Positions 2,156-30,378 of a stretch of DNA of 64,000 bases are shown here, piece after piece. The stretch is from Patescibacteria group bacterium. GTDB taxonomy: Bacteria; Patescibacteriota; Microgenomatia; UBA8517. The notes under the pieces are model-generated. The model made no database searches, was not told where the DNA came from, and saw nothing but the letters and a program-made list of their open reading frames with translations. Position numbers and translations under genes: made by a program. Location: positions 6,571 through 70,570 of the forward strand of contig JBGQJK010000002.1 in NCBI GenBank assembly GCA_041499035.1. The letters run 5' to 3'. How positions within the stretch are numbered: the stretch's first letter is position 1; every line of letters starts with the position of its first letter.

Positions 2156-2164
2156 AAACGAATG

Positions 2165-3582: not shown

Positions 3583-3588
3583 TCATTT

Positions 3589-3663: not shown

Positions 3664-3667
3664 AAGT

Positions 3668-4246: not shown

Positions 4247-4273
4247 AACCTGCTATAATTGCAGTGCCTAAAA

Positions 4274-4361: not shown

Positions 4362-4362
4362 T

Positions 4363-4444
4363 GGTGGGCGGGCAGGACGGTAATGCGCGGGTCTTGAAAA
4401 CCCGTGAGCGCAAGCTCTAACAGGTTCGACCCCTGTGCCCACCG
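4363..4444 (+). tRNA. tRNA-Ser (anticodon TGA)
   Basis: Acceptor GGTGGGC/GCCCACC, anticodon arm CGGGT-CTTGAAA-ACCCG, long variable arm, T-loop TTCGACC. D-arm pairing is atypical. Confidence 0.65.
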
Positions 4445-4445
4445 C

Positions 4446-5578: not shown

Positions 5579-5581
5579 ATC

Positions 5582-5942: not shown

Positions 5943-6339
5943 CTTAAAAAATAATATTAGTTCTGAACTCTCATTTCAAAATCGTATTTTTATGCACCCT
6001 GGTGCAGGTGGTATTTATGCTAACGAGGGACATAGTATGACAGTTAACGGCAACGGGAGTAGTAATTTTCAGGGAATCCATTTTCATCATTCAGAACCTC
6101 TAACGGTAATCAAGTCAACGGCACTGCTCAGATTAAAAGGATTAATTCGCGACAACGAATCGGTTGTCGAGTTAAGAAGTTGTGGAACAGATAACAGAGG
6201 CGTTGAGGGATTCGCCGCGCGGACAGATAAAATGTTCGACAGTTATGAGCCTCACGTGTCGTTAGGCGATCTCTTTGATTCGATAAACACACTTCGCAAT
6301 TCCTCACTTTGGCCGAAGAAATAAGTATCTCGAACAAGA

Positions 6340-11076: not shown

Positions 11077-11661
11077 ATGAAAAGAATAGTTTTGTTATTA
11101 GGTCTTTTTGGGTTAATTTTCTTTTTGCTTCCGTATAAAGTTTTGGCAGGTCCTCAATGCTCTACTAAAGGCGGAAGCTGCTCAACCGCATGCAGCATCA
11201 GCGATACCCCTTCAGGACCTTTAGACTGCCCAACCCAAAATGGAGGTAGAGGGGCACCCATTCAACAAGTTTGTTGTGTACCTCAGTCATCAGGCGGTGG
11301 TAGCAGTGGTGGATCTACTAGCGGCAGTTCTCCAGTAAATATACAAGGACGCTGCGCAATCACAGCAATCGATACAGCAATAGGCTGCATTCCTGTCTTA
11401 AACAGCGATAACGGAACGGCATTTATGGGCTTTATCCTTAGATGGGCCGTGGGCATCGGGGGCGGAATCGCTTTTCTTTTAATTCTTTACGGAGGCTTTA
11501 TGATAATGACTTCCTCGGGTAACCCTGAGCGACTTAAAGCGGGACAGGAACTTCTAACTTCGGCAATTGGAGGAATAATTCTTCTTATTTTCTCTGTATT
11601 CCTGCTTAAGGTTATTGGAATTGACATACTCGGTCTTGGATCTTATGGTTTCGGGAAGTAA
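11077..11661 (+). CDS. pilin-like two-TM protein fused to N-terminal Cys-rich secreted domain (paralog 1 of array)
   Basis: Signal peptide, 10 Cys in 'GPQCSTKGGSCSTACS...CCVPQ', Gly/Ser linker, then C-terminal 'GGFMIMTSSGNPERLKAGQELLTSAIGGIILLIF' matching the array motif. Confidence 0.5.
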   Translation: MKRIVLLLGLFGLIFFLLPYKVLAGPQCSTKGGSCSTACSISDTPSGPLDCPTQNGGRGAPIQQVCCVPQSSGGGSSGGSTSGSSPVNIQGRCAITAIDTAIGCIPVLNSDNGTAFMGFILRWAVGIGGGIAFLLILYGGFMIMTSSGNPERLKAGQELLTSAIGGIILLIFSVFLLKVIGIDILGLGSYGFGK

Positions 11662-11669
11662 AAATAGAC

Positions 11670-12005
11670 ATGTTATTGGCACAAAACTTAGACGCAATTC
11701 AAAGCGGAGGAATTCCAGGTTTTACAATCCCTAATGGCGGGCTTGCATCTTCCGGTGTTGGTACGCTAATTACATTATTAATCCCGTATATATTTGAGGC
11801 CGCGGCACTTTTACTTTTAATTTACTTCCTACTTGGGGGGTTACAGCTTATGACGTCGAGGGGAGACCCTAAAGGGATACAAGCTGCTCAGGGAAAAATT
11901 GTCAACGCTTTAATTGGTTTTGCAATTATTCTCCTCGCGGGCTTTGTAGTGCTACTATTAGGGAGATTATTAAGAATAAATGTTTTTACAGGATTAATCG
12001 TTTAA
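11670..12005 (+). CDS. pilin-like (VirB2/TrbC-like) small two-TM protein, paralog 2
   Basis: 'LLGGLQLMTSRGDPKGIQAAQGKIVNALIGFAIILLAGFVV' shares the conserved motif with its neighbours. Confidence 0.5.
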   Translation: MLLAQNLDAIQSGGIPGFTIPNGGLASSGVGTLITLLIPYIFEAAALLLLIYFLLGGLQLMTSRGDPKGIQAAQGKIVNALIGFAIILLAGFVVLLLGRLLRINVFTGLIV

Positions 12006-12010
12006 AAAAA

Positions 12011-12301
12011 ATGGATATAAATAGTATTTTTGGCTCTCCTCTTACCCAACTTACGAATGTGGCAGGGCTAGTTACCATTTTTTTAAACGCGATCTTTGTT
12101 ATTGCCGGTCTTATTCTACTTTTTTACTTTATTTTGGGGGGAATAGGAATGATAAATAGCGCCGGGAAAAACGACCCGCGGGCAGCGGAACAGGCGAAAC
12201 AGACTGTTACTTCGGCTCTTATTGGGTTTGTTGTTGTAATTGCTGCCTACTGGATAGTAAAATTAACAGGAACGCTTTTAGGGATTCAAAATTTAATATG
12301 A
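12011..12301 (+). CDS. pilin-like small two-TM protein, paralog 3
   Basis: 'ILGGIGMINSAGKNDPRAAEQAKQTVTSALIGFVVVIAAYWIV'. Confidence 0.5.
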   Translation: MDINSIFGSPLTQLTNVAGLVTIFLNAIFVIAGLILLFYFILGGIGMINSAGKNDPRAAEQAKQTVTSALIGFVVVIAAYWIVKLTGTLLGIQNLI

Positions 12302-12630
12302 CCAACCCATTCGGATCAGTAAAGATGCCTAATACCGCTCTTGGAACGGATCCTGGCTTAGCTATCGGAAAAATAGTCCAGCTTGTAATTTGGGTTTTAC
12401 TCATAAGTGCTGGTGTTTACGCACTTATTAATTTTATTTTAGCCGGCTATGCATTTATGTCTGCTGGGGATGATGCCAAAAAAATCGAGGGTGCCTGGGC
12501 AAAAATCTGGCAGACAGCACTTGGTCTGGCAGTTGCAGCTGGCGCCTTTGTGCTGGCTGCAATTTTTGGCCAGCTAATTTTTAACGATCCTACAATTCTT
12601 TTCAATCCAACTATCCCAGCCTTACCATAA
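12298..12630 (+). CDS. pilin-like small two-TM protein, paralog 4 (divergent)
   Basis: 'ILAGYAFMSAGDDAKKIEGAWAKIWQTALGLAVAAGAFVLA'; ATGA overlap with the previous gene. Confidence 0.45.
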   Translation: MTNPFGSVKMPNTALGTDPGLAIGKIVQLVIWVLLISAGVYALINFILAGYAFMSAGDDAKKIEGAWAKIWQTALGLAVAAGAFVLAAIFGQLIFNDPTILFNPTIPALP

Positions 12631-12635
12631 ATAGA

Positions 12636-13001
12636 ATGAAAAATTTATTATCGCAAGTCAGTTTTGGTACATTTAAGGGCATCGGATCTGGAAATCTATC
12701 TAATTCAACCGGTGGCATAGCAACCCTGGCCAGTTTTATTACATCTGTAATTGGTGTCATGACAATAGTTGCAGTTATCTGGTTTATTTTTGTGTTTATC
12801 ACCGGTGCAATCGGGATAATTGCAGCAGGAGGAGACAAAGGCGCTCTCGAGAATGCCAGAAAAAGGATCACTACAGGACTAATCGGTTTAGTGGTCGTCA
12901 TTATTGCAACTTTTGTGATTGATTTGATCGGATATTTGCTCGGCTTTCCTTCCAACGGAATTTTAAATATTGTTAACCTGTTTAATACTCTACCCAAATA
13001 A
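12636..13001 (+). CDS. pilin-like small two-TM protein, paralog 5
   Basis: 'ITGAIGIIAAGGDKGALENARKRITTGLIGLVVVIIATFVI'. Confidence 0.5.
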   Translation: MKNLLSQVSFGTFKGIGSGNLSNSTGGIATLASFITSVIGVMTIVAVIWFIFVFITGAIGIIAAGGDKGALENARKRITTGLIGLVVVIIATFVIDLIGYLLGFPSNGILNIVNLFNTLPK

Positions 13002-13005
13002 ATAA

Positions 13006-13323
13006 ATGATAAAAAATCCGGTACTAGGGGGCTTGGGTGCGACGGCCGGCATCACCTTTTTCCAAACATTCTTTGGTAAGCTTGTAGCGGTTGCCCTTAT
13101 AGCAGGATCCGTAATTTTTCTTTTTATGCTGATTACTGGGGCAATACAGTGGATTTCTTCCGGTGGCGACAAGCAGGCACTTGAAAATGCAAAAAGCAAG
13201 GTGACAAACGCGATCGTCGGAATTATAATTCTGTTCGCTATTTTTGCAGTAATAAATTTTGTCAGCTCTTTCTTTGGAAATATCCCAATATTAAACGCGC
13301 CTCTAAATCCCGTTACCCCTTGA
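13006..13323 (+). CDS. pilin-like small two-TM protein, paralog 6
   Basis: 'ITGAIQWISSGGDKQALENAKSKVTNAIVGIIILFAIFAVI'. Confidence 0.5.
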   Translation: MIKNPVLGGLGATAGITFFQTFFGKLVAVALIAGSVIFLFMLITGAIQWISSGGDKQALENAKSKVTNAIVGIIILFAIFAVINFVSSFFGNIPILNAPLNPVTP

Positions 13324-13362
13324 CACGGCGTTTTAAAAAGGCCAATAATATAAAATACAGAT

Positions 13363-13701
13363 ATGGGGAACTCTCTGCTCGCGCAAATAAACTTAAAGCC
13401 GGATGCTAATTCGGGCTTCAGTAACCTGGGAGGCTATACTTTACCCGGAATTATATCCGCTCTTATAAAAGGGGCGTTGGTTGTGGCAGCAATAGTTTTC
13501 TTCTTTATACTCGTCCTCGGCGGAATAAAATGGATTGCGTCGGGTGGCGATAAAGCGGCAACAGAGGGTGCAAGAAATCAAATTACGGCGGCCCTAATCG
13601 GCCTTGTAATAGTCTTTGCTGCTTGGGCAATAGTTTCCTTAATCAATACTTTCTTTAACGTAAACATTTTCTCCTTGACACTTCCTCAAGTTAGCGGTTA
13701 A
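13363..13701 (+). CDS. pilin-like small two-TM protein, paralog 7
   Basis: 'VLGGIKWIASGGDKAATEGARNQITAALIGLVIVFAAWAIV'. Confidence 0.5.
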   Translation: MGNSLLAQINLKPDANSGFSNLGGYTLPGIISALIKGALVVAAIVFFFILVLGGIKWIASGGDKAATEGARNQITAALIGLVIVFAAWAIVSLINTFFNVNIFSLTLPQVSG

Positions 13702-13746
13702 AACGGGCTTGCTCAATCTTGCCCCCTAGTCTAGAATTGTCTTTAT

Positions 13747-14022
13747 ATGGACCCTGCGCGTATAACTGACCTCCAAACAGTCTTTGTTAATGTGGTAAAG
13801 GTTGCTATTGCTGCAGCCGGAATAGCTTTGTTTGTCATGCTTCTTATTGGTGGATTTAAATATATAACCTCGGGTGGGGATCCTAAGGCAACTGAGGGCG
13901 CGCAAAGAACTATCACTTATGCAATCGGCGGACTAGTCCTTATTCTTGCGGCCTACTTAATACTTTTACTCATACGAACCATAACAGGGGCTCAAGTGAC
14001 CAACTTTACCGTGGTCCAATAA
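13747..14022 (+). CDS. pilin-like small two-TM protein, paralog 8
   Basis: 'LIGGFKYITSGGDPKATEGAQRTITYAIGGLVLILAAYLIL'. Confidence 0.5.
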   Translation: MDPARITDLQTVFVNVVKVAIAAAGIALFVMLLIGGFKYITSGGDPKATEGAQRTITYAIGGLVLILAAYLILLLIRTITGAQVTNFTVVQ

Positions 14023-14042: not shown

Positions 14043-16571
14043 ATGAAACGCTTTCTGCCCATTTTCGCAACCCTCTTCGGGCTTTCCTTTTTTTTTCCAA
14101 AAGCTTCAAAAGCCCAATACACACCTTTAAACGATGTCCCAATCCCCCAGATTCACTTTCCCTGTGACAAACAAACTCAACCCGAATTTGCTTCTTTAAG
14201 ACCTTACCAGGCAGCAGCCTGCGGAGACGCTGACAAAGCACTCTACTGCAGCAACGATCTTATATTCCTGGAGACTTTTAACAGCTTTCCGGAATGTGGA
14301 GGCCAAGCGCCCGCAGGGGAGGGAAAATTTATTTGCAACACAAATAAATTTATTCCAAACCATAATTTAATTGTAGATTTGGCCAATAGCGATCTCCCCA
14401 TCCTTGGAAATACCGAGTTAACTAAGGACAGCATCAACTCGACCGATAAAATTAGTGATGCGGGAAAAATGAATGAGTATGCAAGCTGGTACCTTAACGG
14501 AACTCTTAATAGAGCGGAGTACGGACAAATTGACCCTACCCAGATTGCCGATTATTCGGGACCAATTCAAAAAGTCATGCCCCAAGTAATTCTTGAGGCC
14601 GATAGAATAGGCACAATCGCCTCAGCTTCAGCAATGACAACATATATTCCGGAAAATGACAACGGCGGTACTGCGGCCCCACAAGCCACTACTGAGCCCC
14701 AAAACCATAACCAGATAGTTGTTTGCTATAAGAAACAGGCCCAACTTATTCCGCCCATCATCACAAATTTTTTTGGGCTTGGAGCAGTAGGGCTAGGCAA
14801 GGCACTTCCCGGGGATTGTTACGATGGGGCTGGTCACATGACAGATGGGCTAAGCATACTGAGACTTGAAAGTTGGGATAAATCCAGTCCTACTGTTGAT
14901 GTTGCCGGCATTGCCAGCTGGCTTCTTAAAATTTTTCCTCCGAATATTGTGTCTATACTTACAAGTAGCACTGCCATCCTCGATCGCTGGCCATATAAAT
15001 TTCCCCCTCTCCCTTGGTCGGATAAAAACGGTCAGCCTTTTTCTAGTCCGGACGCATATCAAAAGGCTTATAACGAATGGCGGGGGCAACTCTGTGCTTA
15101 TATTTCATTCCCAATACTGGGAACCAAGTTATTTTGTGGCGGAATTCCGGGCGTAACAAATAATGATTTTGCAGACCTTTTTCCCTTTATTCCCCTCGGG
15201 AACACTGTTGATAAACACGGCTCCGAAACCGCATATATAGCGGAAATTCAGCCACTGGGAGAGACCCAGATTGCTGACCCTTCGTACGATGTACCAAAAA
15301 ATGCTCCCCTTTGGTTCTCACACACCGAAGAAGTAATGAACATGTCAAAGTTCTTAAACTCCAGTTATACCCCCCTCGACTGCACAGTAACTAACGGTAA
15401 ACAAACCTGTCAGCCACTTGCCAGTGTAGCGGAACCTAAAACTACGGAGGCGAATGTCTGCAACGTAGTAAATGTAAGAACAAATTCGGGAGATAACCTC
15501 TTCCCCGGCCAAACACATGGAGTCGTGGTCCCCAATGTTCACTACACGATCACACAAGTCCCGTGCGAGAAAAAAATAGTAATACAGACGATCGGAAAAC
15601 CCCCTAATGAAAAAACAGTAAGACGAACCGTTATCACTTGCGATGCCGAAATAAATATAACAATCCCCACAATTACAAAGAGTCCATCACTTGACCCGAT
15701 ATTCCAAAGCACGGTTGCTTATTCCGGGTCTACATTCAGGAAGATCTATCCCAAAGTGGAAACGGGTGCCCCTGTAAATTGTATTGCGGATATTCCGGGT
15801 TCAACCGGAGTTGATTACACGGGAACAGATAACGTACCCGCGGGTGGAAACAGCTCGTTTAAATATAAAAATCCTGCGCTAGGTTCAAACAATGCCTCCG
15901 AACTATATTTTCCACACCTCGGTTCAGTCTATGACTACTTTCTTAAAGGCATTCAAACCGCTCTACGCCCGCAAGGATTCGGAGCCCCAACACCAATAAG
16001 CGGAAAGTACTGCAGTCCGACAGTACCAACCCAGTGCAATGCCAACGTCCCCGATTCAGCCGTCTCCAGCAAATTTCTTGGCGCTTTCAAAACCAACTTT
16101 ATACTCGTTGCCGACAGGTGGACTCTTGACTGCCCCGGGCCGCAATACAATTTGGCTGCTCAATGTTACAACTACGTTGTCAGCGAGGCCCAGAAAGCCG
16201 GTGTTAATCCTGCGTTTGCTTTGTCTATTTGGCTTCATGAATCAGATGCAAGCAACTATTGTCATGGCGGCCTCTCTACTCAGGATTTTGGACAAAATGT
16301 TGCCAGCGAGTATCAAAATATAGTTGCTCAGTTAACTGGATTCTTGGCTATGGCAAAGCAAAAGCTCTGCAACGGCGTTCCGGGATTCCCTGAACCCATG
16401 GCCGGTTGGCTAAGTAGATATAAAAGTAGTTCCGGTTCATGTAATCCGGCAGACTCTGATGCAATGAGCTATTACCCTGAAATTCGGGATACATCCTGGG
16501 GAGTGCTAACTAATTGTGTGAAAGGTACCAAATTCGGAATTACCTGGCCCACCGATATGAGTTGTCCCTAA
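14043..16571 (+). CDS. large secreted Cys-rich protein (842 aa), possible lysozyme-like C-terminal region
   Basis: Signal peptide 'MKRFLPIFATLFGLSFFFPKASKA', >30 Cys. C-terminal 'YNYVVSEAQKAGVNPAFALSIWLHESDASNY' resembles the catalytic E-S region of lysozyme-like/SLT folds; this is weak. Confidence 0.45.
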   Translation: MKRFLPIFATLFGLSFFFPKASKAQYTPLNDVPIPQIHFPCDKQTQPEFASLRPYQAAACGDADKALYCSNDLIFLETFNSFPECGGQAPAGEGKFICNTNKFIPNHNLIVDLANSDLPILGNTELTKDSINSTDKISDAGKMNEYASWYLNGTLNRAEYGQIDPTQIADYSGPIQKVMPQVILEADRIGTIASASAMTTYIPENDNGGTAAPQATTEPQNHNQIVVCYKKQAQLIPPIITNFFGLGAVGLGKALPGDCYDGAGHMTDGLSILRLESWDKSSPTVDVAGIASWLLKIFPPNIVSILTSSTAILDRWPYKFPPLPWSDKNGQPFSSPDAYQKAYNEWRGQLCAYISFPILGTKLFCGGIPGVTNNDFADLFPFIPLGNTVDKHGSETAYIAEIQPLGETQIADPSYDVPKNAPLWFSHTEEVMNMSKFLNSSYTPLDCTVTNGKQTCQPLASVAEPKTTEANVCNVVNVRTNSGDNLFPGQTHGVVVPNVHYTITQVPCEKKIVIQTIGKPPNEKTVRRTVITCDAEINITIPTITKSPSLDPIFQSTVAYSGSTFRKIYPKVETGAPVNCIADIPGSTGVDYTGTDNVPAGGNSSFKYKNPALGSNNASELYFPHLGSVYDYFLKGIQTALRPQGFGAPTPISGKYCSPTVPTQCNANVPDSAVSSKFLGAFKTNFILVADRWTLDCPGPQYNLAAQCYNYVVSEAQKAGVNPAFALSIWLHESDASNYCHGGLSTQDFGQNVASEYQNIVAQLTGFLAMAKQKLCNGVPGFPEPMAGWLSRYKSSSGSCNPADSDAMSYYPEIRDTSWGVLTNCVKGTKFGITWPTDMSCP

Positions 16572-16619: not shown

Positions 16620-18185
16620 ATGTCCAAGCCGCTCAAAAAAATTGTATTTTCTTTTTTAACTGCACTCGTCCTTCTTTTTTCTTTTGCTCCATTTTTTAGA
16701 GCAAAAGCTGCAATCCCACCGGGAGGAATAAATGTCGGCATTGACCCAAGTAATCTTTGGAGTCATACGTGGTATGCCGAGGAGAATCCGTTTGCCTGGT
16801 ATCAAAAAGTTTACGACGATTCTATATCCCCAACCAGCGAGATTTTTGGAGAACGCTATACGGCCGCACAAGTCCAGTGGGTTATTTACGGGCTTTTCTC
16901 CTTCTTCTGGAACTTTATACCTGGAAACCCGCAACTGACAACCTGCGCTATTAGCGGGGATATCAGCAGCTGCCAAACCTTGCTTCAAAAACTCCAAAGT
17001 GCTATCAAAATAGGTGATAGTAGCGGGCCGACGCCGGCATCAACTACGGCATCTATATTTACTTTTGCTGGCCAGAATCCGATTTCAGGAGTTTATTATT
17101 TTAAAAACCTGATCGGGAAATTTTCCCTAATATCCGAGGTTCACGCCCAGGGGTTTGGCTACACAAACGCAGCAAATTCAATTGTAGGTATTTGGAGAGT
17201 TACCAGAAATATTAGCTACGGCTTTATGGTATTGGCCATAATCATTTTTGCTTTTATGATTATGTTTAGAGTAAAAATCAATCCCCAGGTAGTTATTACA
17301 GTTCAACTCGCAATACCGAGACTGGTATTCGCATTAATCCTCATTACTTTTTCATATGCAATCGCAGGGTTCGCGATCGATTTAATGTATGTAACAATCG
17401 GGCTTTTAGCAGTATTAATAAACGGGGCTCAGTTAACAAGCGAGACACCTATCCAGCTGTTCCAAAACTTTGTCTCGAGCAATAGTTTTGTATTATTATA
17501 TAACTACTGGATACATTTATTGGTCGCAAGTATTGTTGCCACGGTTTCGCCCGGTGGAGGATTCGGGCTTGGAATTCTTCTTGTCCTATTCGCAATAATT
17601 GCTATTCTTGCAGTTATATGGTGGTCCCTCAAAATTGTTTGGATGGTAATTAAAACGTTTGTGTCAATTATTCTGACGATCGTCGTTGGACCGTTAGAAA
17701 TAATGCTCGGGACAGTCACTGAATCTACAGGTTTTGGCGCGTGGCTTAAAAGACTGATATCTTATTTGGCGGTTTATCCTATGATGTGTTTAATGTTTTT
17801 TCTGGCATTTTTCTTCCTCAATCAGGGCGGGGACACAGCCGGATTCGGAGGGACAATTCCGTTTAACCCGGCAACAAATTTCATAGGTCCTAATTCGTGG
17901 GTTCCGCCTATGTCATTTTTAACGGGAAACGGACAAAGGTTAATATGGATTCTTGTAAGCTTTGTTATTTTCAGCGAGATAACAAAAGTCGCAGAAATGG
18001 CACAAAAATTTATTGAGGGTAAGCCGTGGGAGTATGGAACTGCTGTTGGAGAAGTGAGACAGGGTGCAAAGAACGTTGGTCAGTCCGCAACCGACTTCGC
18101 AAGACTATATGCCTCCACTAAGGCTATCGGAGGAACTGCACAAGGAGTAGTCAACGCTCTAAAGTGGCTAGCATTTATGCCGTAG
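16620..18185 (+). CDS. VirB6/TrbL-like polytopic membrane protein (type IV secretion inner-membrane component)
   Basis: Signal/TM, ~150-aa extracytoplasmic N-domain, then 6-8 TM helices rich in aromatic and Gly residues. Its position upstream of a VirB4-like ATPase fits VirB6/TrbL architecture. Confidence 0.5.
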   Translation: MSKPLKKIVFSFLTALVLLFSFAPFFRAKAAIPPGGINVGIDPSNLWSHTWYAEENPFAWYQKVYDDSISPTSEIFGERYTAAQVQWVIYGLFSFFWNFIPGNPQLTTCAISGDISSCQTLLQKLQSAIKIGDSSGPTPASTTASIFTFAGQNPISGVYYFKNLIGKFSLISEVHAQGFGYTNAANSIVGIWRVTRNISYGFMVLAIIIFAFMIMFRVKINPQVVITVQLAIPRLVFALILITFSYAIAGFAIDLMYVTIGLLAVLINGAQLTSETPIQLFQNFVSSNSFVLLYNYWIHLLVASIVATVSPGGGFGLGILLVLFAIIAILAVIWWSLKIVWMVIKTFVSIILTIVVGPLEIMLGTVTESTGFGAWLKRLISYLAVYPMMCLMFFLAFFFLNQGGDTAGFGGTIPFNPATNFIGPNSWVPPMSFLTGNGQRLIWILVSFVIFSEITKVAEMAQKFIEGKPWEYGTAVGEVRQGAKNVGQSATDFARLYASTKAIGGTAQGVVNALKWLAFMP

Positions 18186-18192
18186 AATGCAA

Positions 18193-20478
18193 CTAAGCTT
18201 CAAGGCCTTTATTGGTAGCATCTGTGGGGAGTCCCTTGGCTTGGTCTGGAGGGATAATTCCGATTCTTCCTATTCTATAACGTATCCTGTCTATGGCTGA
18301 TACTACCTTGTTTGTCATAACCCCTCTATCTTTGGTTGCTACTTTATCTGCATCTTGCGCCAGCCACTCCTTATACTGAGGGAGTGATCTTATTCCATCC
18401 CAAAAAGCTAGCACCAACTTTTTTTTATAATTCCTTACCTCATCCGTAACGTATTTATCTGTAGCTTTTTTGTTAGCTTTGGCTTGTTCCACTTTTCTTC
18501 TGTCTTTTTTATCCGCTTCGGTTAAGGCTGCCTCGCCTCCTTCTCTAATTCCATTATATATCCCCCTGAAGCGGCCGTTAAACACAACCTGCGCGTTTAG
18601 TGCAATCCCCATATTGGCGGCGAATTTTTCCCAAAAAGTTTTTTCTTTAAGTTCCCGTATATCCCAATCTGTTCTCATCATGTACTGGAAAAGTCCGATT
18701 TTTTCCCGACCGGCAATAAATATTCCAAGGGCTGCCTGATTATATGTTTTTGGATGAAGACCCTCCCACTGCAGCTCACCAAGATGAAATGCTCTTTCTG
18801 CGGGAAGTTCTACCATTTTTCTAAGAACGGGGTCATATCCCTGTCCTTTTCTATACCCCCATCTCATCTCGTCAAATGACCTTTTCCCAACATCTACAAA
18901 CTTCATTTTTATCTTACTCTCGACAAATTGCCTATTACCATCCTTATCCAAATCTTCCACCTCTTTTACCGTCCCGTCATCATTAAGCTCGTGCCCCTTA
19001 CCTGTCCAACTTTTAAAATAGGGAACCGCAAACCTATCAGGATATTTTTGGAAAGCGCCATCGGGTCCAAAACCTCTGATTTCAGGTTTTAAGAACCTAT
19101 AGACCTGAGTAAAAATATTGGGGCCAATTACTTTAATTCTATCGCAGGAAGTCATTCCCCCCATCTCATGGGATATATAGTTACCTTCCGGACGATCAAG
19201 TTCTTTATCATATTCTCTATGGTAAACCTGACCCCCAAGGTCGGAAGCCATTCCGGTTACTCTAAGCATCTCCCAAGCGATAAAGCGGGCATCCCGCGCC
19301 TCTTTTTTAGCCATGTTACCTTTAGCCTCGCTTCCACCCCCTATAAACCTTTCAATTTGTTCAAAAACATGCTCTGCGTCGTTCCACGAAGACTCAACCA
19401 AAATGTTTCCTTTCTCCGTAAGGAGCCCTCTAATGCCTTTGTGTTTTTTATCAGGATCATTAAAGTCGACCGGCTCTTTGTTCCATGACCACGGCTCGCC
19501 AATCCATTTAACCAAAGTAGCATTTAATGTTCTTCCTTGCCTTTCTTCGGGTCTTAAGAAAAGGTCATCTACTTCCTGATCCGAAACCTTAAATAAAAAC
19601 TTAAAACCGGGTCGTGTGACTAAATCTTTAAACTGCTCATAATTTTCGGACTGTGCAGCAAGTTCCAGACATTGGAGCGAAACACTCATTGCGTCCCCAA
19701 ACTCGTGGCCCTTTCTAAATTCCGCTCCGCCTTCTGTTTTTGTAAGAATGCTCTTCCTATCTACCCCTTCTACCCCAGTAAATCTACCCTCGGCGTCGCA
19801 AAGAATTCTCATCGCTTCATGGGTAAGGCTGCCCATAAAATAAAATTGGACTAGGCCCTCCAGATTTTCCGTCTGGTTCCAGACATATCTAGCCATTTTA
19901 ACCATATCTTCTCTGGCAGTCATTTCACCATCAACTCTGGTGAGGACCTCCGCAAGGGCTTTGCGCTGTTCGTCCGTACCGGGTTCGTAAGACACCGTCT
20001 GGCCAATTATCGACTCCTGCTTGATCTTTCCATCCTGATCCTGAACGACCCTCCTTTCCGTCTCCGCCCAAACAACAGTAGAGGTATAAGCATATCCCGG
20101 AAAAGAAAAGGTTGCCTCCCGCTGTTGGTCTCCATTTTCATCTACAACACTTTTGTAAGTAAGGTACCCCATATCCTGAAGATCCTGAAGCGTTTCGTTC
20201 ATTACAGAAATTCTGCCTTCCAGATTAGCTTTCACTTGATCCATACTCCATTCGGCAACTGTGCCGTCCGGCTTAAGGATCATATTTTCAAAGATGGCCA
20301 TATACGACCTACTGGCGTCGATTAATTGTTTGGGGTCTACCGAACGTTCTATGACCTCAATATTTGGAAGTCCTTCTCTAAGATGTCTTGCAGCTTCGGG
20401 TTGTTTATTTTTGTCGTCTTTACCTTGTTCCGTACTAGCACCAGTCGGGAGTTCAGTCATACAAAAATTGTAGCACAA
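18193..20478 (-). CDS. hypothetical large soluble protein (761 aa), opposite strand within T4SS-like locus
   Basis: Long ORF with no TM segment, P-loop or motif I recognise; highly charged. Confidence 0.4.
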   Translation of the reverse strand: MCYNFCMTELPTGASTEQGKDDKNKQPEAARHLREGLPNIEVIERSVDPKQLIDASRSYMAIFENMILKPDGTVAEWSMDQVKANLEGRISVMNETLQDLQDMGYLTYKSVVDENGDQQREATFSFPGYAYTSTVVWAETERRVVQDQDGKIKQESIIGQTVSYEPGTDEQRKALAEVLTRVDGEMTAREDMVKMARYVWNQTENLEGLVQFYFMGSLTHEAMRILCDAEGRFTGVEGVDRKSILTKTEGGAEFRKGHEFGDAMSVSLQCLELAAQSENYEQFKDLVTRPGFKFLFKVSDQEVDDLFLRPEERQGRTLNATLVKWIGEPWSWNKEPVDFNDPDKKHKGIRGLLTEKGNILVESSWNDAEHVFEQIERFIGGGSEAKGNMAKKEARDARFIAWEMLRVTGMASDLGGQVYHREYDKELDRPEGNYISHEMGGMTSCDRIKVIGPNIFTQVYRFLKPEIRGFGPDGAFQKYPDRFAVPYFKSWTGKGHELNDDGTVKEVEDLDKDGNRQFVESKIKMKFVDVGKRSFDEMRWGYRKGQGYDPVLRKMVELPAERAFHLGELQWEGLHPKTYNQAALGIFIAGREKIGLFQYMMRTDWDIRELKEKTFWEKFAANMGIALNAQVVFNGRFRGIYNGIREGGEAALTEADKKDRRKVEQAKANKKATDKYVTDEVRNYKKKLVLAFWDGIRSLPQYKEWLAQDADKVATKDRGVMTNKVVSAIDRIRYRIGRIGIIPPDQAKGLPTDATNKGLEA

Positions 20479-20583
20479 AAAGAAGAGCCAAGAACTTGTG
20501 AAAAGGGATTCCCCTTGCGTCTAGTGCTTCACGAGATAACCTGTAATGAGAGCTGCCCTACTTCGTAGAAGCAAGCTCCGCTT

Positions 20584-21627
20584 ATGGAACAGCACGCAAT
20601 ACCACAAAATGTATCTTCATACCAATTTAAATTGGTTGGAGATATGACGCTTAAACAGTTCTTTCAACTTGCGGGGGGTATTTTGGCCGGCATAATTTTT
20701 TATTCGTCCCCGCTTCTCGGCATAATCAAATGGCCGCTCGCAATTTTATCGGTACTACTTGGAATCGGACTTGCGTTTCTCCCTCTTGAGGAGCGTCCTT
20801 TGGAAAAATGGATCTTCGCTTTCTTTAAAGCAATCTACGCGCCTACTATTTTTTCCTGGCAAAAAGGCGCCACACGCCCAAAGTTTTATCAGGACGAAAC
20901 CCCTACAGCTTCCAACCCCGAACAGGACGCGGCTCTTAAAACTTATTTGGCAACGACTTCTCAAACTTCCACAGCCTTAGGAAATCTGGAAAAGGCGGAG
21001 AGCGGGTTTCTTGCCCAACTCACCGGGCTCTTTTCCCTGGGCCAGGGTACCACCCCCGCGCCCGCCCCCGTAGCGCCCCCGGTAGCCGCGCCGCCAAAGC
21101 CGGCGGTTGTACCGATTCCGGAAAACTCGCCGGTAAAAATTCCGGCAGCACCAACTCACCTGATCGTTGAAGAGAAGTTGATACCCGTAGTTCCCCAAAA
21201 CCAAGTCACCACAAACCAGGTTGTTGGGATTATTGCAGGCAACGAAATGATCTCGACCAAACAGGCAATGTTTTCTGTAGACGCAGCTCCACCCAATCCC
21301 CCCACCTCACCCAATGTAGTGGTAGGCCAGGTCGTAGACCAGGACAGAAAAATCATAGAGGGAGCAATTATGGAAATTAAAGACTCAATGGGACGCCCAA
21401 TAAGGGCCCTCAGAAGCAACAAGGTGGGACACTTCATTACGGTTACCCAACTTGATAACGGAAGATATGAAATTGTTACCGAAAAAGACGGCTATGAATT
21501 TACCCCGGTCTCGTTTGACGCAAACGGCAATCTTATTCCGCCAATTTTGGTTCAAGGAAAAAGGTTGGCACCTGAAGTAGAAGAGGCGCCCCCGGCAATA
21601 GTCAAACCGGCTTACTCAATCAATTAA
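20584..21627 (+). CDS. membrane protein with Pro-rich linker and C-terminal carboxypeptidase-regulatory-like (transthyretin-fold) domain
   Basis: Two N-terminal TM helices, 'PAPAPVAPPVAAPPKPAVVPIP' linker, and 'VVGQVVDQDRKIIEGAIMEIKDSMGRPI...DNGRYEIVTEKDGYEF' resembling the CarbopepD_reg/Cna-B pattern. Confidence 0.4.
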   Translation: MEQHAIPQNVSSYQFKLVGDMTLKQFFQLAGGILAGIIFYSSPLLGIIKWPLAILSVLLGIGLAFLPLEERPLEKWIFAFFKAIYAPTIFSWQKGATRPKFYQDETPTASNPEQDAALKTYLATTSQTSTALGNLEKAESGFLAQLTGLFSLGQGTTPAPAPVAPPVAAPPKPAVVPIPENSPVKIPAAPTHLIVEEKLIPVVPQNQVTTNQVVGIIAGNEMISTKQAMFSVDAAPPNPPTSPNVVVGQVVDQDRKIIEGAIMEIKDSMGRPIRALRSNKVGHFITVTQLDNGRYEIVTEKDGYEFTPVSFDANGNLIPPILVQGKRLAPEVEEAPPAIVKPAYSIN

Positions 21628-24188: not shown

Positions 24189-27038
24189 ATGGCCGCTATA
24201 GAAGTTCCTAATATTGATCTAAAAACAGCTAAGGCTCTTAGAAAGGCTTTTGGTTATTTCTATTCTGACGTAGATCCCGAAAAGACCGAAGCATTAAGAA
24301 AGGCTTTTGGTTATTTCGGTGATCTAGAAAAAAACGCTCCTGATATTAAAGAGCCTGTCGATTTTAAAGATCCGGATACAGGAATTGCCTTCAAAACGTC
24401 TGCCGACTTTAGAGCCGAATTAAAAAAACTTGGACTTCCGGAAGGCACACCGGTTAAAAACATCGGGATTGAGGTTGAGAGGTGGTATGAAACGCTCCAA
24501 CGGGGCGAGACAACAATGGCCGGGGCTCCGGAACCCGAAAACGCTGCAAATGTACCTAATGCAGGACTCCGGGAAGCCCAAAAAATAGAATACGAACAGC
24601 GACTGGCTGCAAAAATGGCCGCTGATGAAAATGCCAAGGCTGACGTTGAAAGAATGATTAAGAGATATAAAGACCGAACTATAACGGTAGTGCCAAAGGA
24701 TCTCCAAACTCTTACTTTAGATCCGAACCAAAAAATGACTATTTATAGGTACGCTCAAGCTGCAGCTTCTGACCCGGGAATAACACAGGAGGAAGTTGCA
24801 AATATTATGCGGGGTGCAATCCCTGAAGAGCTAAGGGATAGTATCCCCGAACAAGCTATTCAAAATACGGCGCGGGGTTTTGTCGAGAAGGCGCGGGGTT
24901 TTGCCGAATATAAAACGGCTGAAGAGATTCCAACCGAAACTACAATTATGAATCCAGCCGGACCGCCGGCCGCTCTCAATGATCCTAACAATAAAGTTTT
25001 TCAGGAAATAATTCCTGAAGAGGAAGTGAGAGTGGCCCTTGCATCAGATGCCCAGGTTATATCTTATGCATTTGCAGCAAGATACGACACGGAGACAACA
25101 TTAACGGCGCCACTTTTCGGTGGAGATACTACGCTCACATGGTCATTTTATGGTCCGCCATCTACGGAGTTTGAGCCGGTAAAAGGTGAAAACAAAAATG
25201 GTATTAAACTCAACCTTAGCGTAATTCACGAAGCCGGAAGCGATGTAAAAGAGTTTGTTGCCAAAGTGCCCAAGCTAGGAGTTTCCGGGGAGGGAAGAGA
25301 AGTTGCTTCAACAGGCATTGTCCCGACCAGGGTTCCCTATCAATATACGGGCGACGAAGCTCTCGCCAAGCGGGCCCAAGGTTTCTTGCAGAAGGAAAGA
25401 TTCGGAAGATTTAGGGGGTTCAACACTCAAGGCGAATACGCTAAATACGTTACGCGTATTTCCAAAACCTCAGAATTGTCCAGAGATGTCCCCGTTACCC
25501 CTGGCGTTATGGCGGGTTCAACAGATGGTGCTGTAAGGATACTGTTTACACAAATGGCCTTAAAAAAGGCCCCTCTTTTACTCGTACCGAAAGTAACAGA
25601 AGCTATAATTAAGGGTGGTTTCCAAACCACTGCTTTAGCATCACTCGCTACTGAAGGTCGGGTTATATATTTTGCAGGGCTTGGGAAATACTCATTTAAC
25701 ATTGTCAACCTTTCCGGGGCATCCTCTGAACTCTATATAGCTGGTCTAAACTTCGGGAACAGGGCTTTCGGACTAGGTCTTGCAAAAACCGGAGGAAAGG
25801 TTGTGGCCACCGGAATAATCACAAAAGGCGCCACAGGTCAAATAACAACCCGAGCCCTCCCCGCCCTTTTTTCAAAAGTTGGCTCTTGGCTCGGTTCAAT
25901 TGCCCCTATCATTGGCAATATCCTGGGAGCGATATCTGGCTGGATATTCGGAAAGGTACTTGACAAAATCCCCTGGAAAAAAGTTAAAGAATGGTCTGCC
26001 GCAATTCTCGGAACCGCGGCCGCAATAATTTCCTTACCCTTTGTAGGCTTGGCGGCAGCGTTAGGAATAGGTGGGGCTACAACTGTAATTTCTGCGCTTT
26101 TTGGTGGCGGCCTTGGAGGATTAACTTTAGGCGGGGTTGGAGCTAGTGTGGGAGGGTTTCTTGGCGCTCTTATTCTCACAACACTAGGCAACATCGCGGG
26201 ATGGCTTTTTGTAGTATTTATTTCCTTCTCATTAATGGTCACTCTAATTCTTTTTATAATTAATGCAGGCGCTTATGTAGTTCCCCAAATTCCTGAGGTT
26301 GCGACGGGCGCTGTAGGACGAACGGGTGTTAACGTGGTATGTTCAACCGATAAAGGCCCAGTGGGTGTCAGCGGGCCAACGTCCTCTTCTCCTATCGCAA
26401 ACCGCGCATGGGAAATCGTATTTGATCTTTACCAAGGTTTTTGGTGCTTTTGGAATAGATCTCCCAGCAACGTTCCTTGGAATGGCCCCCCCAGACCTGA
26501 TTTTCCCAATGACATCGTCAAATATCCACCAAACTACCCGCAGCCAATATATTTTGACTATAATCTTTACGCAGTAAACAAAAACCCTTCAGAAAAAAGC
26601 GGACCGGACCTTTTTTGGTGTACAGACCTGGTTATCAAGGCATATCAAGAAACCGGCCACAACATCCCACCAGACCTGGGGGTCGCCGAAATGCACGCAC
26701 ACTGGCCTGTAAACAAAATTATTGCCGCAAAAGACGCAACGCCTCAAAATATAGTTCCGGGAAGCGCAGTTTTCTTCAGAGTAACTTCCGGTGATTTCGC
26801 AAACCAGTTAAATCATGTGGGAATTGTCTACTCTGTAGACCTCGCGGGAATTACCGTTGTCGAATCAAATAATGCCGTTAAAAGCGAAAGAATAACTTTT
26901 ACATTTACTACGGCAGGATCCTGTACGCCTTTGTGTCTCAAAAATGCGACTTTCCAGGAATGCGGCTGTTATGGTCAAGTAAATGGCGTGGCGAACCTTC
27001 CCGGAATGCTGGTGGATTCTTTTGGATTACCATACTAA
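24189..27038 (+). CDS. T4SS-associated cell-wall hydrolase-like protein: N-terminal repeat domain, Gly-rich multi-TM region, C-terminal CHAP/NlpC-P60 domain
   Basis: C-terminus 'FWCTDLVIKAYQETGH...HVGIVYSV...VVESN' has the Cys...His...polar pattern of CHAP/NlpC-P60 peptidases. Mid-region 'GGGLGGLTLGGVGASVGGFLGALIL' TM helices. Tandem 'ALRKAFGYF' repeats at the N-terminus. Confidence 0.55.
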   Translation: MAAIEVPNIDLKTAKALRKAFGYFYSDVDPEKTEALRKAFGYFGDLEKNAPDIKEPVDFKDPDTGIAFKTSADFRAELKKLGLPEGTPVKNIGIEVERWYETLQRGETTMAGAPEPENAANVPNAGLREAQKIEYEQRLAAKMAADENAKADVERMIKRYKDRTITVVPKDLQTLTLDPNQKMTIYRYAQAAASDPGITQEEVANIMRGAIPEELRDSIPEQAIQNTARGFVEKARGFAEYKTAEEIPTETTIMNPAGPPAALNDPNNKVFQEIIPEEEVRVALASDAQVISYAFAARYDTETTLTAPLFGGDTTLTWSFYGPPSTEFEPVKGENKNGIKLNLSVIHEAGSDVKEFVAKVPKLGVSGEGREVASTGIVPTRVPYQYTGDEALAKRAQGFLQKERFGRFRGFNTQGEYAKYVTRISKTSELSRDVPVTPGVMAGSTDGAVRILFTQMALKKAPLLLVPKVTEAIIKGGFQTTALASLATEGRVIYFAGLGKYSFNIVNLSGASSELYIAGLNFGNRAFGLGLAKTGGKVVATGIITKGATGQITTRALPALFSKVGSWLGSIAPIIGNILGAISGWIFGKVLDKIPWKKVKEWSAAILGTAAAIISLPFVGLAAALGIGGATTVISALFGGGLGGLTLGGVGASVGGFLGALILTTLGNIAGWLFVVFISFSLMVTLILFIINAGAYVVPQIPEVATGAVGRTGVNVVCSTDKGPVGVSGPTSSSPIANRAWEIVFDLYQGFWCFWNRSPSNVPWNGPPRPDFPNDIVKYPPNYPQPIYFDYNLYAVNKNPSEKSGPDLFWCTDLVIKAYQETGHNIPPDLGVAEMHAHWPVNKIIAAKDATPQNIVPGSAVFFRVTSGDFANQLNHVGIVYSVDLAGITVVESNNAVKSERITFTFTTAGSCTPLCLKNATFQECGCYGQVNGVANLPGMLVDSFGLPY

Positions 27039-27727
27039 TGAAATTTTCATTTAACAAAAAACAAATCGTAATTATTATTTCTATTTTTGCGTTGCTTTTT
27101 GCCGGACTTTACCTATTCCTAAGTAGGGCTGTTCAGCCTACTGTAATAAATACCTCCCCGGATAACGGATCATCCGACGTTTCCGAAACATCACAAATCA
27201 GTATTAATTTTGACGCAAGCATTCAGGAAAAGTCAAAAACAAAAATATTTGTGGCTCTGAAACCTCAAGCAGATTTTGATTCAACATGGCTAGCAAACAC
27301 ATATAAAATAATCCCCAAAACAAATTTGCAAAACAACCAGAAATACACTGTCAATGTGTTATTTGATAATACTAAAATATATAGTTTTTCATTTGAAACA
27401 GAAATTTTTAACAGCGCTGTTATTCAAAAGTACGGCAGTCTTCAATCACAAAACGACTTCGTCTTCGGTCAGGTAACGAAAGACCTTATAACAAAGTATC
27501 CATGGTATACAAGTCTCCCTGTTAAAACCAATAACTATATCGTTGATTACGATTTTGACAAGCAAGAATTTGTAATAACATTTTTGGTTCCGATTGAGAG
27601 TTCTGATCAGCTAAATACTTTAACTTCGGATGTAATGCAAAAACTTAAAGGAATCGGGGTTAAAGACCCGATTACATATTACATGAATATGATAGCTCCA
27701 CGCCCTTCGCCTAACCCTGGACTCTAA
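27038..27727 (+). CDS. hypothetical signal-anchored protein (start trimmed to 'MKFSFNKKQ')
   Basis: ATG overlaps the stop of the upstream gene by 1 nt; N-terminal TM 'IVIIISIFALLFAGLYLFL'; remainder beta-rich. Confidence 0.4.
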   Translation: MKFSFNKKQIVIIISIFALLFAGLYLFLSRAVQPTVINTSPDNGSSDVSETSQISINFDASIQEKSKTKIFVALKPQADFDSTWLANTYKIIPKTNLQNNQKYTVNVLFDNTKIYSFSFETEIFNSAVIQKYGSLQSQNDFVFGQVTKDLITKYPWYTSLPVKTNNYIVDYDFDKQEFVITFLVPIESSDQLNTLTSDVMQKLKGIGVKDPITYYMNMIAPRPSPNPGL

Positions 27728-28826
27728 CAGGCATAATAAGATGAAGGTAGTTTGGGTCGGTTGAATCTGTAAATAGACCCGCTTTGTCCGAGGAAGTAAA
27801 TTCCATTTTAACCTCATCCCCGGCTACAGAATGCAAGAATTCTTCAAGAAATCGGTAGTTAAAGGCAATTTCAAAATCTTTTACGCTGCCTTCAACCCTA
27901 GCCTCCACATCCGTTTCCTGACTTCCCGAAGAACTACTTTCGGCCAAAACCTTAACTGAGTCCTTATATAGTTTAAGTTTGACTATGTTCGCAGCCTCTC
28001 TGGCAAAGATTGATGCCAGCTTTACAGCCCTTAAAAATTCTTCTTTATCCAATCTAACGGAAATAGAAGAACTCTTGGGTATAATTTTTTCAAAATCCGG
28101 ATATTCCCCTTCCAGAAGCCTTGAACTTAAAACTACGTCGCCTAAACCAAAAACAACTTGCCTGTCTTTTTCCTGAATCTCGAGTTGAATCTCATCAATA
28201 TCTCCCGCCGACCTCCCAATCTCCCCCAATATACTCTTTGGAATTACAATTTTTTTCATTACCGGTTCGTTCTTTTGTAATGTCAGAACAACTTTCTTTT
28301 GAGAAAGTCTAAAACCGTCTGTAGCTACCAGAACAAGGCTGTTTTTGTTAAGAATAACAAGTACGCCGGTTAGTACCGGCCGTGTTTCATCCGTACTTGT
28401 GGCATAAATAACCTGCGCGAGAGATTCCAAAATAGCTTTTTTAGGTAAGCTGAAAGGTTTTGCTAAAGATCCCGGAATTTTAGGAAAATCAGACGCATTC
28501 ATGCCCAAAATTTTCGCCGTAAAGCCTGAAGTCGTAATATTAAGTTGTTCCTTTTCCGATTCAAGTGTTACGGTTTCTTTTGGGAGATTGGAAATCAGCT
28601 CTGTTATTACTTTTGAGGGAATACTGATTTCACCTTCACTTTCTATCTTTGCGCCTATTTGGGTAAGAACGGAGACTTCAAGGTTCGTTGAAGCAACTGT
28701 AAGTTTTGTTTTGGTAGCCCTAAGTAAAATATTACCGAGGATTGGAAGTTGAGATCTAAGGCTCACAAATCTTGAAGCTTGTGTAACTGCATTTGTAAGA
28801 TTTTCCTGTAAAACGGTTAATTTCAT
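27711..28826 (-). CDS. dnaN: DNA polymerase III beta sliding clamp
   Basis: 'MKLTVLQENLTNAVTQASRFV...LPILGNILLRA' canonical DnaN N-terminus; ~370 aa; downstream of dnaA. Confidence 0.9.
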   Translation of the reverse strand: MKLTVLQENLTNAVTQASRFVSLRSQLPILGNILLRATKTKLTVASTNLEVSVLTQIGAKIESEGEISIPSKVITELISNLPKETVTLESEKEQLNITTSGFTAKILGMNASDFPKIPGSLAKPFSLPKKAILESLAQVIYATSTDETRPVLTGVLVILNKNSLVLVATDGFRLSQKKVVLTLQKNEPVMKKIVIPKSILGEIGRSAGDIDEIQLEIQEKDRQVVFGLGDVVLSSRLLEGEYPDFEKIIPKSSSISVRLDKEEFLRAVKLASIFAREAANIVKLKLYKDSVKVLAESSSSGSQETDVEARVEGSVKDFEIAFNYRFLEEFLHSVAGDEVKMEFTSSDKAGLFTDSTDPNYLHLIMPVRVQG

Positions 28827-28869
28827 AATGTGTCAGTTATTATATATTAAATAGTAGGAGTAGTAGTAG

Positions 28870-29012
28870 GCACTGTTGATAAGTGCAAAAAAGTCTGATT
28901 TTGAATTTATGTTTCGGATCATGTTTGTGTGAATACCAGCCACGCTGTTTTGTTGATAAAGTTGTGGATAATTCTAAAGCTTGTGTTGATAAGTCTACTC
29001 TTTTATCAAAGC
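28870..29012. promoter_or_regulatory. oriC-type DnaA-box cluster between dnaA and dnaN
   Basis: TTGTGGATAA (28962-28971, perfect TTATCCACA on the - strand), TGTTGATAA at 28874, 28951 and 28984, TTATCAAA at 29003; AT-rich flank 28840-28860. Confidence 0.6.
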
Positions 29013-29016
29013 ATCC

Positions 29017-30378
29017 TCATATCCCCAACTTGATATGCGCGATATCCTCACGGATATGCACATCGGTTGTGGCCAGCTCGGTGATTTTACCCACAGCGTG
29101 CATAACGGTAGTGTGGTCCCTGTCCCCCACGAGCCTACCGACCTCTTCTAATGAAATTCCCAAATGGGTTCTAAGTAAATACATTAAAATTTGCCGGGGC
29201 CTTGCTACCGGTCTGGCACGCGAATCTCCCAGGAGAGCCCGTTTTCCTATCTGGTAGTAACCTGAGACAGCTTCAATCACTTCGGAAGGGTCTTTTTTAA
29301 CCGCTTTTCCGTTTACCTCAATCCCCTTTCCGAGTACAGACTCGATGAGCTCGTTGCTCATTTCAATGTGCTTTAGTTTTATTTCAGTCATGAGCTTAAT
29401 CAATACCCCTTCTATTTTTCTCGCCGAATCAATATTTCCTGCGATCATCTGTATTTGATCCATCGCAAGCTCTAAACCTTTTTCTCTGGCTTTAATTTGG
29501 GCGATTGCGCACCGCAGCTCAAAGTCAGGTGGCGCAACATCGACAATTAGACCAGCCTCAAACCGGCTCCGTAGGCGTTCTTCCAGGCGTGGAATTTCGC
29601 TCGGAGGTCTGTCGCTGGTTAATATGACTTGTCCTCCGGCTGACGTTACCGCGTTAAATGTGTGGAAGAATTCCTCCTGAGCGGTGTCTTTTCCTGCAAT
29701 AAATTGAATATCGTCTATAAGGAGGAGGTCCAGTTTTCTATATTTGTCCCTGAAGCTTTGGGTAGTTTTGTTTCTTATGCCCTCTATGATGTCGTTTGTA
29801 AAACTTTCCCCGGTGCAAAGGAGGACTTTCAGATCAGAGTTTTTTTGCAGCGAAGAGTTACCTACAGCTCCCATTAAATGAGTTTTGCCCACTCCTACTC
29901 CACCCCATATGAAAAGAGGATTATATGCCGACCCCAGGGTTTCTGATACGGCTAAAGCCGCTGCGTGAGCCATTTGATTTGAACCCGAAACGGCAAAGTT
30001 TTCGAAGTTGAAATTAGATCTGATTTTGGCTTTTTGCAAAACCTCAATCAAATTTTCATCCTTGACTTCCTCTTGGAACAGAGGTGAGGCCGTATTTTCC
30101 GCTGCTTTACTCTTCTCCGGACTTTCTTTGACTATAAATACCAGATCGCAGGGTTTGCCTAATACTTTTGAGACGGAGTCTTGAACTAAACCGAAATATC
30201 TTGATTCGATTGTGCTTTTAACAAAAGACGAGGAACAACCTATTTCAACCAACATTCTCTCCCCCATTTCTTTAATTGAAGCTATGTGGGTTTGTGAAAA
30301 CCAGGTAGAAAATATCGCAGGAGAAACCGAAACTTTAACAATCTCTAATGTGTCTTTCCATGAAGATTTATTATCCAT
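29017..30378 (-). CDS. dnaA: chromosomal replication initiator DnaA
   Basis: AAA+ Walker A '[16 protein letters not shown]', Walker B '[13 protein letters not shown]', C-terminal DnaA-box-binding domain '[13 protein letters not shown]'. Confidence 0.9.

Follow-up and report, generated by a model that had tools for sequence, protein, structure and literature searches.

Why does a conserved secretion locus hold one large gene that runs against all of its neighbors, and what might its product do there? The question arises in a 64,000-nt stretch of DNA (hereafter, the window; positions 6,571 to 70,570 of the forward strand of contig JBGQJK010000002.1, GenBank assembly GCA_041499035.1) from a Patescibacteria group bacterium (GTDB lineage Bacteria; Patescibacteriota; Microgenomatia; UBA8517). 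Between a VirB6-like channel gene and prgI, its type IV secretion system (T4SS) locus contains a minus-strand gene for a soluble protein. We refer to the place of this gene as the slot and to whatever fills it as the occupant. We found that the slot is a sharply bounded, recombining, always-occupied hypervariable cassette in a conserved T4SS locus that is probably essential. The cassette comprises the last 45-60 codons of the VirB6-like gene, the occupant gene and the spacer up to prgI. The occupant is decoupled from the phylogeny of the machine and has been exchanged between lineages.

Occupancy of the slot

Using VirB4 as an anchor, we collected 80 metagenomic loci at 72-91% identity, and both flanks of the slot were contained in 41 of them. 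All 41 carried one large opposite-strand open reading frame (ORF), 595-1232 aa long, in the slot, where it abutted or overlapped the 3′ end of the VirB6-like gene. These occupants were all soluble, acidic and about 30% charged, and about half of them belonged to the family of the window protein. In every long contig with a homologue of that protein, from 51% down to about 20% identity, the occupant again filled this slot, oriented against the flanking T4SS genes. Starting from dnaA-dnaN, the gene order was the hydrolase, VirB4, TrsD and PrgI on one strand, the occupant on the other, then the VirB6-like gene, a gene of about 800 aa and eight pilins on the first strand again, and finally SpoIID in the direction of the occupant. 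The first-pass annotation of the window had asked whether orthologs occur only with this locus. The long-contig members of the family were indeed all found in this slot and nowhere else, and no further copy of any occupant family was present elsewhere in the 64-kb window. In one locus (L045 4239-6458), the occupant ORF ran about 217 nt into the 3′ end of the VirB6-like gene that converges on it, which implies overlapping convergent transcription in some genomes.

The occupants were sorted into superfamilies by clustering and profile-profile comparison (hhalign):
Superfamily A: S1 (with the window protein), S2, S3 and S10; 21 loci
Superfamily B: S4 and S5, plus the more weakly linked S6 and S12; 13 loci
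Superfamily C: S7 and S11, plus S8, whose only link is a common N-terminal leader; 5 loci
Superfamily D: S9; 2 loci

Judged by these profile comparisons, the slot is filled by at least four superfamilies without detectable cross-homology. The hhalign probabilities between superfamilies were 0.1-5% (A against B and D) and at most 38% (S1 against S8). The hallmark motifs of A were absent from B and D, and no Pfam domain was found in B, C or D. At A391-K443, the superfamilies showed only a weak co-located similarity. The four superfamilies may be extremely diverged forms of one ancestral fold.

The match between S7 and S8 (hhalign 99%) covered residues 1-71 only. Some occupants of superfamilies A and C (the L001 occupant; L030, L032 and L039; P0002, P0004, P0005, P0009, P0040, P0046 and P0063; L072) had, as an optional element, an N-terminal leader of about 60 aa, 'MPD(G/N)MSPE ... 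FPQPESK..PDIRMQL', which was absent from the window protein. At the DNA level, the leader stood out as an isolated block of identity within the variable cassette (L030 4041-4245). This leader could be a portable targeting module or simply a recombination flank.

The divergent spacer between the occupant and prgI took extra passengers in some genomes. These were an NTP_transf_2/HEPN pair (toxin-antitoxin; L006 9010-9703), a glutamate dehydrogenase (gdh) gene (L013 7224-8486) and one to five small ORFs of unknown function (L001 9163-9999, L004 6687-9911). No cognate small immunity gene was found in the 123-bp spacer of the window, and the small spacer ORFs occurred in some loci only and were not conserved.

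Exchange of the cassette between lineages

We compared the proteins of the window locus with related loci by tblastn. Identities were 76-87% for VirB4, 60-79% for TrsD, 48-65% for PrgI and 56-63% for DnaN. The window occupant reached 51% at best and fell to 23% in L011 and L012, despite L012 being otherwise among the closest genomes. On a neighbor-joining tree of VirB4, TrsD and PrgI, the occupant types were interspersed. Closely related loci showed the discordance most directly:
L001 and L022: VirB4 97%, TrsD 98% and VirB6-like 89% identical; occupants about 20% identical
L030 and L039: VirB4 94% identical; occupants 6% identical
L001 and L024: VirB4 93% identical; occupants of different superfamilies

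The DNA of L022 was collinear with that of L001 at about 88% identity. This identity broke about 150 nt before the stop codon of the VirB6-like gene and came back at the start of prgI. Both boundaries recurred in L024/L022, L030/L039, L016/L017 and L019/L015, making five close pairs in all.

Other parts of the locus also varied. A second hypervariable cassette comprised the C-terminal part of the 949-aa CHAP hydrolase (M23 in other loci) and the next, Big_5-like, gene (window 24189-27727; L022 13700-15545; L016 11760-14506). There, the DNA identity of close genomes broke as well, and it resumed at dnaN. In addition, the genes of the 842-aa protein (14043-16571) and the 521-aa VirB6-like protein (16620-18185) evolved much faster than the machine core and were decoupled from it; between L050 and L056, for example, core similarity was 0.94 and similarity of the VirB6-like body 0.36. 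Thus, the whole central block is fast-evolving, not the slot alone.

Co-variation with the VirB6-like tail

As the break of identity lies inside the VirB6-like gene, its C-terminal tail travels with the occupant. The swapped segment takes in the last 45-60 residues of the protein, after a conserved GKPxxYGxxxGE motif. In L001 and L022, the VirB6-like bodies were 89-100% identical and the tails 17-42%. Among 35 loci, with the VirB6-like body and the machine core controlled, occupant similarity was correlated with tail similarity (partial Mantel r = 0.205, p = 0.0005). The correlation of the occupant with the VirB6-like body was weaker (r = 0.136, p = 0.019). The distant hydrolase, which is also hypervariable, served as a control and gave r = 0.02 (p = 0.35); co-variation of the occupant with this host-facing protein was thus absent. 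Particular tails accompanied particular occupants. The motif ...NALKWL... was found with S1, and ...PSWIQALR..GIIKK with S4 members from separate core clades. The tails were basic, with a net charge of +3 to +5. A crude hydropathy and positive-inside estimate (about eight transmembrane segments, N-terminus inside) predicted the tail to be cytoplasmic, like the occupant.

The occupant gene and its start

The minus-strand ORF 18193..20478 was uninterrupted, and its translation had no internal stops. The first-pass annotation had counted 761 aa over this ORF. However, the biologically meaningful start is the ATG at 20460, which gives a protein of 755 aa (MTELPTG...) and a gene at 18193..20460 (minus strand), because an identical database protein (P0001) has 755 aa and homologues align from there. 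Moreover, what the TTG start would add as six codons is the promoter of the gene itself. An extended -10 box, TGcTACAAT, lies at 20475-20467 on the minus strand and ends 6 nt before the ATG, so the start is, as read from these letters, of the leaderless type. The box shows only that the occupant is a transcription unit of its own. With 22 full-length homologues at 36-51% identity, this is not a chance ORF. A profile search gave 77 cluster representatives of the family. The named relatives of the window protein came from one Microgenomates-group and one Woesebacteria metagenome-assembled genome, and a scan of GTDB for the family matched 2 genomes. A distant member, P0028 (NCBI TET21298.1), is labelled 'Candidatus Aminicenantes bacterium' and lies on a 5-kb contig. 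As the family is elsewhere in a strict candidate phyla radiation (CPR) T4SS context, this label is probably a binning error.

Much of what the first-pass annotation had said of the gene's setting was borne out. From the pilin array (starting at 11077) to the Big_5 gene (ending at 27727), no other gene runs on the minus strand, and this one diverges from the PrgI-TrsD-VirB4 operon. It also converges on the 521-aa VirB6-like gene as described, although the gap is 7 bp (18186-18192), not 8 bp. The palindromes reported at 20479-20583 could not be recovered: there was no inverted repeat of at least 8 nt within the spacer, and promoter and terminator scans of the spacer gave background levels.

In almost all occupants of every superfamily, an extended -10 box preceded the ATG by 6-7 nt. 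We rejected the leaderless promoter as a special trait of the occupants, since the same arrangement was found at 13 of 57 gene starts. The window genome was nearly devoid of Shine-Dalgarno sequences, with similar motifs at only 3 of the 57 starts. The TAnAAT box stood 5-9 nt upstream of the start codon at those 13 starts, which typically belonged to the first genes of operons. This pattern suggests that leaderless mRNAs are widespread in this CPR genome.

The occupant protein

The window protein has a mass of 86 kDa, a pI of 5.8 and 31% charged residues. We found no transmembrane segment (maximum Kyte-Doolittle(19) value, 0.85), no signal peptide and neither a Walker A nor an HExxH motif in it. 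The first-pass annotation had likewise called it highly charged, with no transmembrane segment and no P-loop. Searches of Pfam, NCBIfam, PHROG, PADLOC and PDB (phmmer) with this protein gave nothing significant, and none of the PADLOC models for anti-phage defence was matched (0 families at E<=0.1). Profile searches of Pfam and PDB with 47 family members were also without significant matches. No Walker A motif, transmembrane segment, or AAA or T4CP match in Pfam or NCBIfam was found that would identify a coupling protein (VirD4/TcpA) or VirB11. Nor was a MOB-family relaxase domain matched by Pfam or NCBIfam in the 47 members.

The AlphaFold model of the window protein had high confidence (pLDDT 87, pTM 0.88), and no specific structural relative of it was found in the PDB or among viral structures. 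In this model, the protein is a single compact, mainly alpha-helical architecture with a novel fold. The remote-homology and structure checks that had been proposed in the first-pass annotation returned neither a known family nor a specific relative, and the assignment to a housekeeping enzyme family that would have spoken against a role in secretion did not emerge. In 65 members, conservation was spread over the whole chain, without a conserved N-terminal trafficking region followed by a variable C-terminal toxin domain. The near-universal residues were R83, R166, G255, W326, R344, N352, G409, D440, K443, R527, E531 and G629.

A positively charged or disordered C-terminus, as is typical of T4SS substrates, had also been proposed as a check. 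The charge was present, with a net value of +2 in the final 30 residues and +5 in the final 50, including the stretch RIRYRIGRIG, but the disorder was not: the C-terminus was modelled at pLDDT 86-96 up to about residue 750, i.e. folded. The C-terminal motifs also differed between the occupant superfamilies. The comparison was made with VirB/D4-type signals (unstructured, Arg-rich, 20-50 residues), which may differ from those of MPF-FATA or CPR systems.

The surrounding locus

The features of the window around the slot were as follows.
11077..14022, plus strand: eight small T4SS-pilin-like (VirB2-like) genes, with T4SS_pilin matches and two or three hydrophobic segments each
14043..16571, plus strand: fast-evolving T4SS operon protein of 842 aa, without transmembrane segments by hydropathy and without a Pfam match
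16620..18185, plus strand: polytopic membrane protein of 521 aa, VirB6-like, with about eight hydrophobic segments and a first external loop of about 170 aa
18054..18185, plus strand: C-terminal tail of the VirB6-like gene, its last 43 codons and stop, after the conserved GKPxxYGxxxGE motif
18193..20460, minus strand: slot occupant, 755 aa, soluble, acidic, mainly alpha-helical by prediction; superfamily A, subgroup S1
20461..20583, no strand: divergent spacer between occupant and prgI, 123 bp, which holds the extended -10 box of the occupant
20584-21627, plus strand: PrgI/VirB3-like, by family match; conserved machine core
21632-22324, plus strand: TrsD/VirB4-N-like, by family match; conserved machine core
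22321-24186, plus strand: VirB4 of the CD1110 family, 621 aa (NCBIfam conju_CD1110, 368.6 bits; cut-off 325)
24189..27727, plus strand: CHAP-domain wall hydrolase of 949 aa (VirB1-like role) and a Big_5 gene, by domain matches
27711..30378, minus strand: dnaN and dnaA, adjoining the T4SS locus

The 521-aa protein is VirB6-like by position and topology only, without a Pfam match. VirB4 was 72-97% identical among the loci, and the 842-aa protein was 29-51% identical between loci. Because dnaN and dnaA adjoin it, the locus is chromosomal and origin-proximal; the SpoIID gene lies on its other side. No relaxase or VirD4 domain was found among the scanned proteins of the locus. By its gene content, we identify it as a chromosomal, dnaA-proximal MPF-FATA-like T4SS of Patescibacteria (Microgenomatia/Woesebacteria type), which is known from the literature.

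In L004 (1342-4881) and L006 (3712-7284), VirB4 was split by an intein with a LAGLIDADG homing endonuclease, giving products of 1179 and 1190 aa, respectively; the VirB4 of the window had no intein. Upstream of the T4SS region, six tRNA genes (four Ser, two Arg) and a transfer-messenger RNA gene (5582-5943; tag ATNLFEAPAYNVVYA) were clustered at 2164-5943 of the window.

Discussion

The obligate presence of an occupant (41/41 loci) in a hypervariable cassette of a conserved machine is a pattern typical of cargo or specificity genes. For this reason, we favor the interpretation that the occupant is a swappable, strain-specific, dedicated cargo or effector, recruited by the VirB6-like tail without a coupling protein encoded in the locus. 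We put the probability of this interpretation at roughly 0.4. We infer that occupant and tail are cognate partners in the cytoplasm. The occupant would bind the basic cytoplasmic tail of the VirB6-like subunit as its cognate partner, and the tail would act as its receptor in a system without a coupling protein in the locus. The occupant would then be translocated towards the host cell as a strain-specific effector. Its diversification may reflect host specificity or an arms race with the hosts. It is more doubtful whether each tail is an allele-specific receptor for one co-inherited cargo, such that shuffled cassettes give each strain its own effector and set its host range.

No mark of secretion was seen in the occupants themselves. 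No toxin or enzyme domain was found in them. There was no consistent immunity-like neighbor, no disordered C-terminal signal and, in the Pfam scan, no XVIPCD-type domain. Physical adjacency could contribute to the correlation between occupant and tail. A non-secreted partner of the VirB6-like channel tail is as coherent as an effector. The first-pass annotation had proposed a candidate secreted effector associated with the T4SS. This proposal survives as the leading interpretation, and the obligate, hypervariable slot, which was beyond the reach of that annotation, lends it independent support.

Variable cargo slots are well known in secretion loci, such as the vgrG/PAAR-linked effectors of the type VI secretion system, the LXG toxins of the type VII secretion system and cdiA-CT/cdiI in contact-dependent inhibition. 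As in those systems, a conserved machine here has a fixed, sharply bounded, recombining gene with non-homologous alternatives in close strains. Unlike them, the occupant does not combine a conserved trafficking domain with an exchangeable toxin tip, it has neither a recognisable toxin fold nor a cognate immunity gene, and the co-inherited element is the tail of a channel subunit, not an immunity gene. In the Xanthomonadales, X-Tfe effectors carry a C-terminal XVIPCD that is recognised by VirD4, and X-Tfi are the immunity proteins. The resemblance to this T4SS is in concept only, i.e. protein delivery to another bacterium. The occupants lack an XVIPCD or any other common C-terminal domain, and the locus has neither VirD4 nor an immunity gene.

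It is also possible, though we think it less probable, that the occupant is not secreted but stays in the cytoplasm as a subunit or adaptor, corresponding in detachable form to the large hydrophilic domain of the 'extended VirB6' proteins. Docked on the short tail of the VirB6-like protein, it would gate or scaffold the channel or make it specific, and its fast evolution would be shared with the rest of the variable central block (the 842-aa and 521-aa genes). Extended VirB6 (FEMS Rev 2025, PMC12857230) offers a parallel: there, too, a large hydrophilic module rich in helices goes with a channel subunit of the VirB6 family. Here, however, the module forms a polypeptide of its own, from a gene on the other strand, and the two are likened by arrangement, not by sequence or specific fold. 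The way in which a VirB6-family region and its partner co-vary by allele also resembles the pairs of the F-plasmid TraG C-terminal domain and entry exclusion (Eex) proteins. The Eex partners are small membrane proteins, in contrast to the 86-kDa soluble occupant.

The sharp boundaries and the non-homologous content of the cassette could also be read as a recombination hotspot, a permissive site between conserved operons where unrelated accessory genes without a role in secretion are carried as passengers. The toxin-antitoxin pair, the glutamate dehydrogenase gene and the small ORFs in the spacers of L006, L013, L001 and L004 point in this direction. However, hotspots differ in how many genes they hold and in which orientation, and they often hold none, whereas all 41 loci had exactly one large soluble ORF, always antisense and always at the 3′ end of the VirB6-like gene. 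The swapped segment also includes the tail of that gene, the window protein had no PADLOC match, and the restriction of long-contig family members to this slot is not what a hotspot would give. We therefore regard a mere passenger as unlikely.

Less likely still is a divergent, possibly inactive zincin (pseudo)protease of the FtsH/M41 type, acting on T4SS components or host proteins. This was the only enzyme-like lead. The family profile gave a marginal match to three FtsH protease-domain chains in the PDB (E = 0.027-0.29). Two consecutive landmarks occurred in the same order, LLGGRAAE against ERFIGGG and ND..AT.LAYRMV..WGMS..VG against DARDARFIAWEML..TGMASDLG, and the resemblance fell on the most conserved helix of the family (residues ~370-415; nt ~19216-19351). 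However, E = 0.027 is not significant, the window protein has no HExxH, and PF01434 was not matched even at E<=10. The lead is therefore not supported.

A regulator of the T4SS operons, transcriptional or post-transcriptional, was the other suggestion of the first-pass annotation and is the least probable of all: divergence from the prgI operon and convergence with the pilin-VirB6 operon (7-bp gap; overlap in L045) would allow control through the divergent promoter region or convergent antisense transcription, but no DNA- or RNA-binding domain was found in the 47 members, regulators are seldom as large as 86 kDa, one would not expect the regulator of a conserved machine to be hypervariable or replaced by non-homologous genes, and the spacer lacks operator-like palindromes.

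In most respects, the locus agrees with the T4SS already described in Patescibacteria (Wang et al. 2023 Cell, PMC10633639; Quinonero-Coronel et al. 2025, PMC12102498). It has the VirB2-like pilin array, PrgI/VirB3, TrsD, the CD1110 VirB4 and the CHAP/M23 hydrolase, relaxase and coupling protein are both missing from the cluster, and dnaN-dnaA adjoin it. An opposite-strand soluble gene, a variable slot and a tail-plus-occupant cassette are not in either of these papers. The Southlakia cluster (SEML1_0006-0019) has no counterpart of the occupant and instead encodes two extended VirB6-like proteins whose hydrophilic C-terminal domains are ARM-like. The locus type is thus known, and within the literature that we searched, the gene family, the fold, the slot and the tail-plus-occupant cassette are undescribed.

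The T4SS of Patescibacteria was essential for epibiotic growth in Southlakia (PMC10633639), and it is the first T4SS shown to be essential for the growth of its owner, which takes place on a host bacterium. No recognisable coupling protein or relaxase is present in the cluster and the substrates are unknown (PMC10633639, PMC12102498); what the system transports and how substrates are recognised are open questions (PMC10633639, PMC12857230). As Microgenomatia are uncultured, direct tests will be hard. The occupant is the most obvious candidate in these genomes for a cargo or specificity determinant, and the tail and the occupant are a concrete, testable pair. If each tail is indeed an allele-specific receptor for its own cargo, they would represent a new logic of substrate recruitment in T4SS and the first candidate substrates of the essential Patescibacteria system. 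Within a locus regarded as a conserved machine, at least two cassettes recombine independently of each other, and this matters for host range and for strain-level diversity in the CPR.

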